Of a stretch of 4,524 nt of DNA, positions 1-4,149 are shown piece after piece. The stretch lies in the IMG/VR virus record IMGVR_UViG_2671180603_000005, one strand, 5' to 3'. How positions within the stretch are numbered: position 1 is the stretch's first letter; the number at the start of each line of letters is the position of its first letter. Under the pieces are notes generated by a model that saw nothing but the letters and a program-made list of their open reading frames with translations, ran no database searches and was not told the origin of the DNA. Position numbers and translations under genes: made by a program. This DNA is from a virus (taxonomy: Duplodnaviria > Heunggongvirae > Uroviricota > Caudoviricetes).

Positions 1-22
1 TCCTGTGCCGTTTTTCAGGTAT

Positions 23-46
23 AAAAAAACCCGCATAAAGCGGGCT
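23..46 (-). terminator. Rho-independent terminator downstream of the Q-like gene (tR'-like)
   Basis: On the minus strand: GC stem CCCGC (44..40) pairing with GCGGG (34..30), 5-nt loop TTTAT, followed directly by a run of 7 T (29..23). It lies about 75 nt downstream of the Q-like stop codon. Confidence 0.7.
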
Positions 47-123
47 CTTTCAAATGTCCATGTCTGCTATTCGCCTCGCGGTACAGCTTTGCGAAGCGTA
101 CAAGAATTGAAGCAGTTTTTACG

Positions 124-678
124 TCAAAAAGCAATAACTTTTTTCTCTATACCAAAAGCCATAACCATTGGTTTGTACAAAATAAATTCTGCCACCTTTA
201 GCCAATGCTCAATGCGTCTTTCACAGGTTCTTAAACTCCATTTCGGGTGTGCATCATTCAGCAGTTCAGCCATTTTGCGTTTGGTCATCCCCCGCCCCTC
301 ATACCGTTGCCGAAGGACGCTAATCAATCCTGGATGCTCTGCCAGCACCTCACTTATGACCCGATCAATACATAACGCCTCTGCATCAGTACAATGCGCC
401 AGCCAGCTCTTTTGCTTACCGTTAATCATATCCCGCAAAAAAGCCTCAAGTTCAGACTTGTTCAGACCTGCTTTTTTCATCCTCCGGAGCGCCTCGTTAA
501 TTGCCGTTTTTGTCAGCTTTTTAGAGGTCAACATCAGGTTAAACATATTCCCCGTCTTACCGCCACCAATATACGACCAGCGCCCCCACATACGTAGTTT
601 TCCCTGAATCCAGACACTTTCCAGCGTGGTGAGACGAAGGTGTTCTCCGCTTTTTCCTGTATTCGTTGGGTAAATCAT
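124..678 (-). CDS. Putative late-gene antitermination protein Q (phage 82/21-type family), 184 aa
   Basis: ATG at 678..676 is preceded by GGAGGG 5 nt upstream; the track ORF (start 798) is a longer upstream extension. Contains a WGRW motif and a C-terminal basic region as I recall for non-lambda Q families. Position is typical for Q: last gene before a strong terminator and right after DUF1367/DUF1364 genes. Family assignment is from memory, not searched. Confidence 0.55.
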   Translation of the reverse strand: MIYPTNTGKSGEHLRLTTLESVWIQGKLRMWGRWSYIGGGKTGNMFNLMLTSKKLTKTAINEALRRMKKAGLNKSELEAFLRDMINGKQKSWLAHCTDAEALCIDRVISEVLAEHPGLISVLRQRYEGRGMTKRKMAELLNDAHPKWSLRTCERRIEHWLKVAEFILYKPMVMAFGIEKKVIAF

Positions 679-965
679 AAATATCCCTCCTTTCTCCAGA
701 TTTCTTGTGTGCGAAAAACACCTTCTGCATGCATCAGGCGTAATTCTTCTTTGGTGTAATCGCTGGTTTTTACCCGCCCGTCGATTAAATCGTGGCACGA
801 GCTACAGGCAATCGCTGCCTGCATATCGTGTGGCTTTATCGCTGTTCCGCACGTTCCCGCCAGTCGGTAATGCGCCAGCACAGACGTTTCCGGATCGTGA
901 TTGCAGTAGCCAGGAATTCTGACGGTGCACATCTGCCCCCGCGCCGCTTTACGTAAATCCACCAT
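675..965 (-). CDS. DUF1364 family protein (YbcO-like, Cys-rich putative zinc-binding/nuclease-like), 96 aa
   Basis: Translation MVDLRKAARG..CTVRIPGYCN..ETSVLAHYR..ACSSCH resembles my recollection of DLP12 YbcO. GGAG sits 8 nt upstream of the ATG at 965. Its stop overlaps the Q start (ATGA), and its start overlaps the upstream stop (TAATG), suggesting translational coupling. Confidence 0.6.
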   Translation of the reverse strand: MVDLRKAARGQMCTVRIPGYCNHDPETSVLAHYRLAGTCGTAIKPHDMQAAIACSSCHDLIDGRVKTSDYTKEELRLMHAEGVFRTQEIWRKEGYL

Positions 966-2542: not shown

Positions 2543-2830
2543 TCAATCCTGCTCAAGATTGTAGATGAGTTTATTCTTCAGCAAAAGCAGAAAACCAGCC
2601 TTAAAACCAATCTCTTTCAAAACCCGTAATGATGTGACAAATTCGTCCTCACGCAAAATAAAACCGTCCGTCAGAAGTCCATTACAAAAATAAAATAACA
2701 CAGCACCGCTCTTCCTTTGTTGAGATTGCAAACATCTAATGCGGCAATGGCTGACAATCGCTCCATTCTCAACGCGCACAGCATAGAGGCCATTTTCACT
2801 AAAAATTTCACGCAATTCTTCGATTTTCAT
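2543..2830 (-). CDS. Hypothetical small protein, 95 aa (phage orphan ORF; occupies the position of rem in Qin-like prophages)
   Basis: ATG at 2830..2828 with GGAAGGA about 8 nt upstream and a candidate promoter further upstream. No recognisable motif. Its stop abuts the upstream region of the truncated DUF1367 copy. Confidence 0.45.
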   Translation of the reverse strand: MKIEELREIFSENGLYAVRVENGAIVSHCRIRCLQSQQRKSGAVLFYFCNGLLTDGFILREDEFVTSLRVLKEIGFKAGFLLLLKNKLIYNLEQD

Positions 2831-2911: not shown

Positions 2912-2939
2912 ATTCTATCTGCGAAGGTGCGCGAATCAA
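2912..2939 (-). promoter_or_regulatory. Candidate sigma70 promoter for the 95-aa ORF
   Basis: Minus strand: -35 TTGATT (2939..2934), 16-nt spacer, -10 TAGAAT (2917..2912), about 80 nt upstream of the ATG. Hexamer match only. Confidence 0.35.
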
Positions 2940-2954
2940 ATTCACCGGAAATAA

Positions 2955-3002
2955 ACAACAAAAAACCCGCCGAAACGCTGAGAGATCACAGCGATGGGCG
3001 GG
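2955..3002 (-). terminator. Intrinsic terminator at the 3' end of the hok transcript
   Basis: Minus strand: CCCGCC..CGCTG / CAGCG..GGCGGG interrupted stem-loop (3002..2966) followed by TTTTTTGTTGTTTATTT. It lies about 80 nt downstream of the hok stop. Confidence 0.6.
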
Positions 3003-3079
3003 TTAAGTGCGGGTGCGTTGAGGATGCCTGACACATCAGAGGTGGGCAGGGATGGGATCAGCTCCCCGCCCGGTCACTC

Positions 3080-3235
3080 TTACTTCCTGGATTCGTAGTC
3101 TACGAAGACAGCGACCTCCGTCTGGCCGGTTCGGATTCGTACCTCACAGAGGTCTTTCCTCGTTACCAGTGCCGTCACTATGACGGTTAAACAGATGACG
3201 ATCAGGGCGATTAACATCGCCTTTTGCTGCTTCAT
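3080..3235 (-). CDS. hok: Hok/Gef-family type I toxin (small membrane peptide), 51 aa
   Basis: Translation MKQQKAMLIALIVICLTVIVTALVTRKDLCEVRIRTGQTEVAVFVDYESRK closely resembles HokD/RelF as I recall it, with the hydrophobic helix and conserved Cys. AAGGAG sits 9 nt upstream of the ATG at 3235. The track ORF (start 3292) is an in-frame upstream extension. Confidence 0.85.
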   Translation of the reverse strand: MKQQKAMLIALIVICLTVIVTALVTRKDLCEVRIRTGQTEVAVFVDYESRK

Positions 3236-3411
3236 AGCCTGCTTCTCCTTGCCTTTCGGCATGTAAGAGGCTAACCTACATGTGCAAAGCATGAAATTGG
3301 CCTCAGATTAATGTTAAGCGTCTTGCCGGACGCGTAATGTTAACTGGGGCTTTTCTCTATCTGCCTTTTGGTGTTCATGCCTGAAGCAGATAGCCTCAAG
3401 CACCCGCAGTC

Positions 3412-3441
3412 ATTCTACTTACCTCGCCAATATGAAATCAA
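3412..3441 (-). promoter_or_regulatory. Candidate promoter for hok mRNA
   Basis: Minus strand: -35 TTGATT (3441..3436), 18-nt spacer, -10 TAGAAT (3417..3412). It would give a ~170-nt leader before the hok ATG, consistent with the long structured leaders of hok mRNAs. Hexamer match only. Confidence 0.35.
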
Positions 3442-3462: not shown

Positions 3463-4149
3463 TCACTCCTTCTCTTCTTTACCGTAGTGGAGTTGACCAA
3501 TTTTGATAAGAGGGCGTCCCTGAGATTTGCGGTGTAGATTGGTATCGCGCAGAGAATACACACAGCCACAATATTCCTGCTGATAGAATTTTTCGCGCTT
3601 GCTGATTTCAATCATACGGGACGAGCCGCCCTGCTTGCGCCAGTTATAATCCCAGTACACCATGCCCGGATAATGCGCGACGGCTCGCCGCCCACAGTCG
3701 TTAACCTGCTGCATATTTTTCCAGCGTGAAATGCCCAGTGAACTGCTGATCACACTGAAACCATTTTCAGCGGCGTACAGCGCTGTCCGCTCAAAACGCA
3801 TGTCAAAACACATGGTGCAACGGATCCCTCGTTCGGGCTCCCATTCCATTCCTTTGGCTCGTTCAAACCAGTTGTCTGTGTCGTAATCAGCATCAATAAA
3901 CGGCACGCCGTGTTGTTCAGCAAAGCGAATATTCTCATCCTTACGAATTAAATACTCTTTCTGAGGATGAATGTTCGGGTTGTAGAAAAAGATGGTGTAG
4001 TCGATTCCCGAGGCCTGAAGCGCCTCCATCACCTCACCGGAACATGGAGCACAGCAAGAGTGCAGTAGTAGTTTGTTTGCCCCGTTTGGGAGCTCCAATT
4101 TGGGCCGTTTGAAATCAGCAACTGTCATAAATATGTTTATTGGGGTCAT
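3463..4149 (-). CDS. DUF208 / QueH-like protein (putative B12-independent epoxyqueuosine reductase homologue), 228 aa
   Basis: N-terminal [11 protein letters not shown] motif, a central RCTMCF CxxC pair and C-terminal YCGCVYS, matching the cysteine pattern I associate with the QueH/DUF208 family. Two candidate ATG starts (4149 and 4128), neither with a clear Shine-Dalgarno. Assignment is from memory and unverified. Confidence 0.55.

Follow-up and report, generated by a model that had tools for sequence, protein, structure and literature searches.

The 4,524-nucleotide stretch of viral DNA analysed here (the window) very probably contains, within a lambdoid prophage, a hok/mok/sok type I toxin-antitoxin cassette that is complete and belongs to the hokW/hokD subgroup. 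The organisation of the cassette is conventional, with no departure from the known hok/sok family, and loci of this kind are already known. The initial annotation had described hok as having a promoter and a terminator of its own but an atypical organisation in which mok and sok were missing; the first part of that description stands, whereas the second does not, both mok and sok being found at homologous positions. Alignment to characterised loci places the following elements where the family would lead one to expect them, listed along the minus strand from the hok promoter to the terminator and then for the antisense gene.

3412-3441, minus strand: hok mRNA promoter, TTGATT (3441-3436), an 18-nt spacer and TAGAAT (3417-3412), from a consensus scan
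2957-3405, minus strand: full-length hok mRNA of about 445 nt, from the Rfam match and fold
3394-3405, minus strand: tac element GGGUGCUUGAGG at the mRNA 5' end, from leader alignment and folds
3377-3403, minus strand: metastable 5' hairpin of the nascent transcript (nt 3-29), from the fold
3346-3355, minus strand: ucb or anti-SD box GAAAAGCCCC, from leader alignment and folds
3301-3304, minus strand: mok Shine-Dalgarno (SD) GAGG, 8 nt ahead of the mok AUG, from leader alignment
3080-3292, minus strand: mok ORF of 70 codons, in frame with hok and ending at a common stop codon, from the ORF list and annotated relatives
3263-3272, minus strand: dcb block AGCCUCUUAC, from the consensus fold and alignment
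3245-3250, minus strand: hok Shine-Dalgarno AAGGAG, from leader alignment
3080-3235, minus strand: hok toxin ORF of 51 aa, from Pfam PF01848
3011-3023, minus strand: fbi element CCUCAACGCACCC, 56 nt past the hok stop, from the duplex and MFE fold
about 2957-3003, minus strand: intrinsic terminator, a CCCGCC...GGCGGG stem with an inner hairpin, then UUUUUUGUUGUUU, from the MFE fold
3249-3277, plus strand: Sok promoter, -35 TTGCCT (3249-3254), a 17-nt spacer and -10 TAACCT (3272-3277), from positional homology
3284-3354, plus strand: Sok antisense RNA of about 71 nt, with a 15-nt single-stranded 5' tail, a long hairpin and GGGGCUUUU as its 3' end, transferred from sokW
3299-3354, plus strand: Sok hairpin and terminator, from homology to the annotated sokW, sokC and sokB

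The toxin gene and its ribosome-binding site were already described correctly. The 51-residue product of 3080-3235 matches the Pfam family HOK_GEF (PF01848) with 79.9 bits against a cut-off of 22 and retains the residues that are invariant in six aligned Hok proteins (C15, T25, R26, L29, E31, R35, G37, E40, V41 and A42), while AAGGAG at 3250-3245 belongs to a motif in which CAAGG is invariant, and the next A and G nearly so, across 27 aligned leaders. The protein is identical to HokW at 50 of 51 positions (98%), and shares 90% identity with K-12 HokD, 78% with the hokC product and 43% with R1 Hok. Its sole difference from HokW is an R in place of E at residue 50, within the poorly conserved C-terminal tail. 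By analogy with HokW, we infer that the window Hok is toxic and is neutralised by Sok.

The hok gene also has the promoter of its own, some 170 nt upstream, and the downstream terminator that had been proposed for it. The promoter matches the consensus at 9 of 12 positions, was one of two sites returned by a generic scan in which 0.4 were expected, and sets the +1 at about 3405, 170 nt ahead of the hok AUG; its -10 hexamer TAGAAT is shared with 933W hokW, and K-12 hokC has TATAAT there. We placed the 5' end of the mRNA by the start of the Rfam model and by homology, and its 3' end by the terminator, which appears in the MFE fold as a hairpin followed by a U-run and aligns with the K-12 hokD terminator, plus an insertion in the loop. 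The generic terminator scan, which allowed loops of up to 8 nt, reported none, the hok terminator being missed by so simple a scan because its loop is long.

Where, then, is mok? The initial annotation expected a mok frame in another register than hok, found none, and noted that the only upstream ATGs, 3292 and 3262, are in frame with the toxin. The ORF list confirms the frame of both, and the first of them is mok: GAGG-N8-AUG occupies 3304-3290, at a position homologous to mokW and mokC, and the frame runs to the hok stop. GAGGC is kept in 26 of the 27 leaders, and the mok SD of R1 lies at the same position as the window GAGG (PMC9841398). The other start, ATG 3262, was rejected as mok, as it has no SD and is a GTG in 933W and most close relatives. 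In length and layout the frame is the same as the annotated mokW of 933W and mokC of K-12; mokW and hokW (933W and the VT2-Sakai prophage) measure 213 and 156 nt with the same end, and mokC and hokC of E. coli K-12 measure 210 and 153 nt, again with the same end. The expectation of a different register is sound for loci encoding the R1 protein with a 58-nt spacing and for K-12 hokB, with which mokB is out of frame, but it fails for mokC/hokC, for mokW/hokW and for about a third of the loci that we sampled.

That sample comprised 79 loci encoding Hok relatives, one genome per species, in which the SD-preceded start was located, giving 50 distinct sequences. The mok start lies 57 nt upstream of the hok AUG, in frame and running to the hok stop, in 15 of the 50; it lies 58 nt upstream in the +1 frame in 20, and 56 or 59 nt upstream in the +2 frame, with a stop at about the hok AUG, in seven, with eight left unassigned by the simple GAGG rule. 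(At nine loci the tblastn match began within the upstream in-frame extension, and seven of these hok starts were recovered later.) The frame varies even where the Hok proteins are almost or wholly the same: two loci of a single strain, E. coli ECMA0423, differ in mok frame (L013 with 57 nt, L014 with 58 nt), and so do loci encoding an identical R1 Hok protein, with L037-L039 having 58 nt and a 70-aa Mok in the +1 frame and L007 having 57 nt and an in-frame mok. The position of the mok start is conserved and its register is not, and an in-frame mok is one normal state of the family. These flips of the mok frame raise the question of whether an in-frame Mok-Hok fusion has an activity of its own.

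The Sok gene, also reported as missing, has both its promoter and its hairpin terminator on the plus strand at positions homologous to those of characterised loci, the promoter occupying, antisense to hok, the interval that separates the hok SD from the mok AUG. Its hexamers are identical to those of 933W sokW, with the spacer differing at one base, and R1-type loci have TTGCGC-17-TATCCT at the same offset. Among 51 distinct loci, the best promoter-like pair stands at this conserved offset in 34 and 1-2 nt closer in nine more, six of which are hokB-type, with a shorter spacing between hok SD and AUG. The assignment of this putative promoter rests on positional homology. Agreeing with the sigma-70 consensus at 7 of 12 positions, it stays below the 9-of-12 threshold of the generic promoter scan, which did not report it; neither this negative nor that of the terminator scan is informative. 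The earlier search missed it because of this weak consensus and because that search was placed inside the hok coding region, about 40 nt off. The pair put forward there, TTAACA (3211-3216) and TAGCCT (3235-3240), is present as described; we rejected it as the Sok promoter, since it falls within the hok coding sequence, in overlap with the start codon, and a transcript from it would start about 40 nt to the wrong side of the conserved Sok start. For the relative sokW, mutation of the promoter abolished antitoxin activity (PMC8621323).

The Sok transcript can be delimited in a similar manner. The independently annotated sokC, sokB and sokW start 48-49 nt upstream of their own hok AUG on the opposite strand, which maps to 3284 in the window, and the RNA predicted from there folds at -28.6 kcal/mol (z = -4.7). 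It is identical to sokW at 64 of 71 positions, all seven differences falling in the first 16 nt, and its 5' tail is complementary to the sequence around the mok start. When ten close relatives are compared, conservation within the transcribed part is lowest at 3275-3304, which comprises the Sok 5' tail and the mok start region, with a mean pairwise identity of 0.59-0.75 there versus 0.92-1.0 in the hok coding region, the last few codons aside. Divergence at 3275-3304 would be expected if coexisting cassettes diverge against cross-talk.

The regulatory RNA elements complete the cassette. The Rfam family RF01794 (sok), which as matched covers the hok mRNA sense from tac to the hok SD and AUG, finds the window at 3230-3405 on the minus strand over the full model, scoring 117 bits against a gathering score of 59; side by side, hokC scores 118.3, hokW of 933W 113.5, hokB 109.7 and an R1-type locus 87.2 bits, and the truncated K-12 hokD gives no match to this model. 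Across the 27 aligned leaders the tac element is nearly invariant, AGCCCC of ucb is invariant and the dcb block is kept in nearly all. Read on the opposite strand, dcb accounts for the bulk of the spacer in the Sok promoter, its final base supplying the T of the -10 hexamer.

Folding assigns tac three partners: it pairs with nt 19-29 when the transcript is nascent, with fbi when it is full-length, and with ucb when the leader is folded alone. A metastable hairpin of -16.9 kcal/mol is predicted from the first 32-50 nt. The full-length RNA (3405 to 2962) has an MFE of -187.4 kcal/mol, with z = -7.5 versus shuffles, and in it tac is paired with fbi and ucb with the mok SD region. The tac/fbi duplex has 12 bp with one bulge at -21.5 kcal/mol, a value equalled by three of 200 shuffled UTRs; in relatives the tac partner always lies about 46-58 nt past the stop, and the two elements covary between subfamilies (GGGUGC/GCACCC, GGCGC/GCGCC and GGGCGCC/GGCGCCC). 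For this survey of tac we used a short core, the R1-type 5' end being one base shorter, and left out nine loci that have no recognisable tac within 230 nt. The consensus fold of the 27 diverse leaders contains the tac/ucb stem, in which a UA-to-CG change is compensatory, an inner stem, and the pairing of the mok SD with dcb, where GGC of the former pairs with GCC of the latter (consensus columns 127-129 and 163-165); six pairs are held through two-sided changes. These pairings are those of the open form described for R1 (PMC9841398). The isolated 62-nt leader likewise folds tac with ucb, at -25.8 kcal/mol, and the MFE of the 3'-trimmed mRNA (3405 to 3034) has the metastable hairpin, the tac/ucb stem being absent. 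Because the MFE of the trimmed RNA is discordant, the open form rests on the isolated-leader and comparative folds.

The presence of these elements at homologous positions is observed; from the R1 paradigm, homology to hokW-sokW and the anatomy of the window, we infer how the cassette is expressed, processed at its 3' end and made toxic. The hok promoter would make a stable mRNA of about 445 nt, in which tac would be sequestered by the metastable hairpin as long as the transcript is nascent. Once the RNA is full-length, tac would pair with fbi, and the mok SD would be hidden by ucb, allowing neither translation nor Sok binding. Slow trimming from the 3' end would take off fbi, whereupon tac would pair with ucb and the mok SD region with dcb, a refolding predicted to make the site of mok initiation accessible and, with it, the target of Sok. 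Ribosomes that initiate at the mok AUG (3292) would then traverse the hok SD and AUG, making Hok synthesis possible, and the in-frame mok would yield a 70-aa Mok-Hok product as well. The unstable 71-nt Sok, made from TTGCCT-17-TAACCT, would pair with the mok start region, resulting in a block and in decay of the duplex, such that Hok would appear only when Sok is lost, for example upon loss of the element or prophage induction. In R1, the hok mRNA is described as being processed slowly at its 3' end, and the Sok/hok duplex as being cut by RNase III (PMC9841398); for sokW the dependence on RNase III is partial (PMC8621323).

The cassette is flanked by a QueH gene on one side and by a block of DUF1367, YbcO (DUF1364) and DUF1133 (Q-like) genes on the other; all genes discussed in the window are on the minus strand.

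3463-4149, minus strand: QueH
2543-2830, minus strand: ORF of 95 aa, without a family match
DUF1367 gene fragments, minus strand: split by an IS3-family integrase fragment
675-965, minus strand: YbcO/DUF1364
124-798, minus strand: DUF1133/Q-like gene

In a prophage of E. coli FDAARGOS_943 the gene order of the window is kept, without the IS fragment, and the block lies downstream of cI/cro-like, replication and nin-type genes and upstream of tRNAs and lysis genes; because of this order and position, we take the setting of the window to be a lambdoid prophage. Prophage genes next to the cassette have been broken up by an IS2-like fragment and by duplications, and because the surroundings are rearranged in this way the element may be a remnant. 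Inside the cassette there is no inactivating lesion, with IS insertion, frameshift and stop all absent. The locus is 99.8% identical to the copy in FDAARGOS_943 and 99.4% identical to those in E. coli ECMA0423 and Shigella flexneri SFBU1023, and of 5426 complete E. coli genomes, 2130 have a match to at least 80% of it, the same search giving roughly 10,800 places in E. coli; hok/sok cassettes of this type abound in prophages. Likeness to other prophages is limited to about 2998-3428, essentially the transcription unit, and this confined similarity fits a self-contained cassette that has been inserted at differing places in different prophages. At the far end of the window, Rfam matches to Trp_leader (23.1 bits) and isrK (19.9 bits) at 21-108 on the minus strand, both under their gathering scores, look like terminator-hairpin matches.

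Could the locus nevertheless be something less than a working hok/sok module? The initial annotation left room for an unregulated or decayed hok, in the manner of K-12 hokD (relF), which has lost its leader, mok and sok and would be expressed or silent within another transcript. The near-identical E. coli copies are indeed labelled 'hokD' by PGAP, and K-12 hokD truly has no leader and no Rfam match, but the name derives from protein similarity, and the window protein is 98% identical to HokW versus 90% to K-12 HokD. The alignments contradict decay, as the window has a 170-nt leader, an SD-preceded mok, the Sok promoter and hairpin, fbi and the terminator, all at homologous positions, with an Rfam score on a par with hokC and hokW, and we regard this explanation as extremely improbable. 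A cassette that is intact in sequence yet inert in its host, owing to E50R in Hok, a constant excess of chromosomal Sok or silencing in a degraded prophage, is unlikely. It would accord with the single amino-acid difference from the tested HokW, with the breakage of prophage neighbours by the IS2-like fragment and duplications, and with work by Pedersen and Gerdes in 1999, which reportedly found the chromosomal hok loci of K-12 largely inactivated. Against inertness stand the absence of any IS insertion, frameshift or stop within the cassette, the copies at 99.8% (FDAARGOS_943) and 99.4% identity (ECMA0423, SFBU1023), and the location of the varying residue in the poorly conserved tail.

Another possibility concerns the product. 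If ATG 3292 were the true start of a single 70-aa toxin, Sok would act on the toxin's own start, and AUG 3235 would be secondary. The common frame and stop of mok and hok mean that a product from 3292 includes all of Hok, and this start has the conserved GAGG SD; yet hardly any member of the family departs from the internal hok SD AAGGAG or its AUG, and close relatives with nearly the same Hok have a +1 or +2 mok from which a fusion is impossible. Because such relatives cannot make the fusion, the function of the family is independent of it. HokW, moreover, is toxic as the 51-aa ORF alone (PMC8621323), and we consider a single 70-aa toxin very unlikely. The reading of the locus as a complete, conventionally organised hok/mok/sok cassette remains the one that we prefer.

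A related and more speculative idea leaves the 51-aa toxin in place. At in-frame loci, each ribosome starting at mok would make a 70-aa Mok-Hok fusion that contains the whole toxin, and Sok would directly control this second, N-terminally extended isoform. Flips in spacing (56, 57 or 58 nt) between near-identical loci would then switch between a one-product and a two-product design and, with the fast-diverging Sok tail, could tune toxicity and insulate coexisting cassettes. We think it rather unlikely that in-frame loci work in this way.

These results matter mainly because they correct the record: an intact hok/mok/sok module of hokW type is the annotation that the locus should have, and orphan or decayed hok would be the wrong one. 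The label 'hokD', the PGAP name for the near-identical E. coli copies, reflects protein similarity only and is misleading because K-12 hokD is a truncated form without leader, mok or sok; the locus should not be equated with it despite the automatic name. Two lessons for annotation follow from the family at large. Frame relative to hok is no guide for recognising mok, given that single-nucleotide changes in spacing alter the frame among close relatives, and Sok promoters are too weak by consensus, positional homology being needed for their detection.

Comparison with known systems places the window closest to the hokW type. The hokD (relF) locus of the K-12 Qin prophage has a similar 3' UTR, with fbi and a terminator core, but it aligns with the window only from a point shortly before the hok SD onwards; it has neither mok nor sok nor any of the leader, all of which are present in the window, and it lies behind relBE. 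With R1, for which loci with the identical Hok protein (L037-L039 and L007) stand in here, the window shares the order of tac, metastable hairpin, ucb, Sok hairpin, mok SD, mok AUG, dcb (AGCCUCUUAC), hok SD, hok, fbi and terminator. We take L037-L039 to be of R1 type, their Hok and 70-aa Mok matching those of R1. Unlike plasmid-borne R1, the window cassette is prophage-borne, and the 5' hairpin of the R1 group has a longer apical part; mok of the R1-type L037-L039, at 58 nt and in the +1 frame, also differs from that of the window, whereas the IncFII variant L007, at 57 nt, is in frame like it. The hokC (gef)/mokC/sokC locus of K-12 resembles the window in its in-frame mok starting 57 nt upstream of hok, in a sokC start 49 nt upstream of the hok AUG, in the same tac and in an equivalent Rfam score (118 vs 117 for the window). 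By contrast, the window Sok hairpin has an extra segment of about 18 nt, and its fbi is intact, whereas the K-12 hokC copy ends beside IS186 without significant fbi pairing.

The nearest relative is hokW/mokW/sokW of the Stx2 phage 933W and of the Sakai prophage Sp5, as annotated in AF125520 and AP000422, to which the window DNA is 92% identical over the transcription unit. Both have a mok of 70 codons in frame, a Sok of 71 nt with the same extended hairpin, and the same tac and fbi sequences. They differ in that fbi lies 56 nt past the stop in the window and 49 nt in 933W, in the sequence beyond fbi (the terminator) and upstream of the -10, and in location, the 933W cassette being near the right end and that of the window beside QueH in the nin/Q region; the seven differences between the window Sok and sokW all fall in the tail opposite the mok start. 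Expression of the 51-aa HokW ORF by itself is toxic, with growth arrest on induction, and sokW from its own promoter prevents this arrest (PMC8621323). Cells lose this protection when the sokW promoter is mutated and regain part of it when sokW is supplied in trans (PMC8621323). The sokW RNA was seen by northern blot, its level dropping after mitomycin C, and the authors linked hokW-sokW to phage-mediated lysis or phage release after induction (PMC8621323).

The cassette varies chiefly where its antisense RNA meets the mok start: among ten close relatives, positions 3275-3304 (the Sok 5' tail and mok start) form the least conserved transcribed stretch, with a mean pairwise identity of 0.59-0.75, an observation tied to the Hok-encoding loci L005 and L010-L022. 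The window Sok differs from sokW, its counterpart in phage 933W and prophage Sp5, at seven positions, all seven of them within the first 16 nt of Sok. This divergence may reflect diversified antisense specificity among coexisting cassettes; in genomes with any match, the number of matching places has a median of 2 and a maximum of 9. Spacing varies as well, and single-nucleotide changes switch the mok frame relative to hok between loci whose Hok proteins are identical or near-identical (L007 versus L037-L039; L013 versus L014). The R1-type locus occurs in two forms, with mok starting either 57 nt upstream of the hok AUG, in frame, or 58 nt upstream, in the +1 frame.

The Rfam RF01794 'sok' model, as aligned to window 3230-3405 (minus strand), runs in the sense of the hok mRNA, beginning at tac, the 5' mRNA element, and finishing with the hok Shine-Dalgarno sequence and AUG, so that its matches land on the opposite strand to the real Sok gene, spanning the whole 157-nt leader, not the 55-71-nt antisense RNA. 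Hok loci typical of Enterobacteriaceae appear in assemblies under foreign genus labels, namely Veillonella, Acinetobacter, Xanthomonas, Ferruginibacter, Streptomyces, Oscillibacter, Dysgonomonas and Vagococcus (loci L011, L023, L028, L037-L039, L055 and L073). Most of these lie on short contigs, and contamination, or the mis-binning of plasmid or prophage DNA, probably accounts for them.

Outside the cassette, the window holds several further features:

1063-1272 and 1273-1482: 210-bp tandem duplication inside the DUF1367 gene, copies 95% identical
1553-1796 and 2283-2526: 244-bp direct repeat in the DUF1367 gene, copies 97% identical
1797-2282: piece of a transposase gene of IS2-like (IS3-family) type, between the two 244-bp copies
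21-108, minus strand: GC-rich hairpin plus U-run (AAAGAGCCCGCUUUAUGCGGGUUUUUUUAU), lying downstream of the Q-like DUF1133 gene
2912-2939, minus strand: promoter-like site TTGATT-16-TAGAAT, with the hexamers of the hok promoter
3463-4149, minus strand: QueH (epoxyqueuosine reductase) gene, within the prophage and directly upstream of the hok cassette

In the window, the DUF1367 gene has a scrambled structure. None of the complete E. coli genomes searched contains the whole window as a single collinear piece, and the best of them covers 89% of it, split into 3-4 pieces. The hairpin is probably only a terminator; its Rfam matches, at 23.1 bits for Trp_leader and 19.9 bits for isrK, were sub-threshold. 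The promoter-like site directly follows the hok terminator and precedes a 95-aa ORF (2543-2830) that matched no Pfam family.

Similarity to the hok cassettes of 933W, Sp5 and other prophages is confined to about 2998-3428 of the window, limits that coincide almost exactly with the ends of the transcription unit. QueH and the hok cassette are neighbours again in many E. coli matches. Where the window has QueH, 933W has L0139/L0136 beside the cassette, and such differing flanks, together with the sharp limits of similarity, are as expected of a self-contained, moron-like insert.
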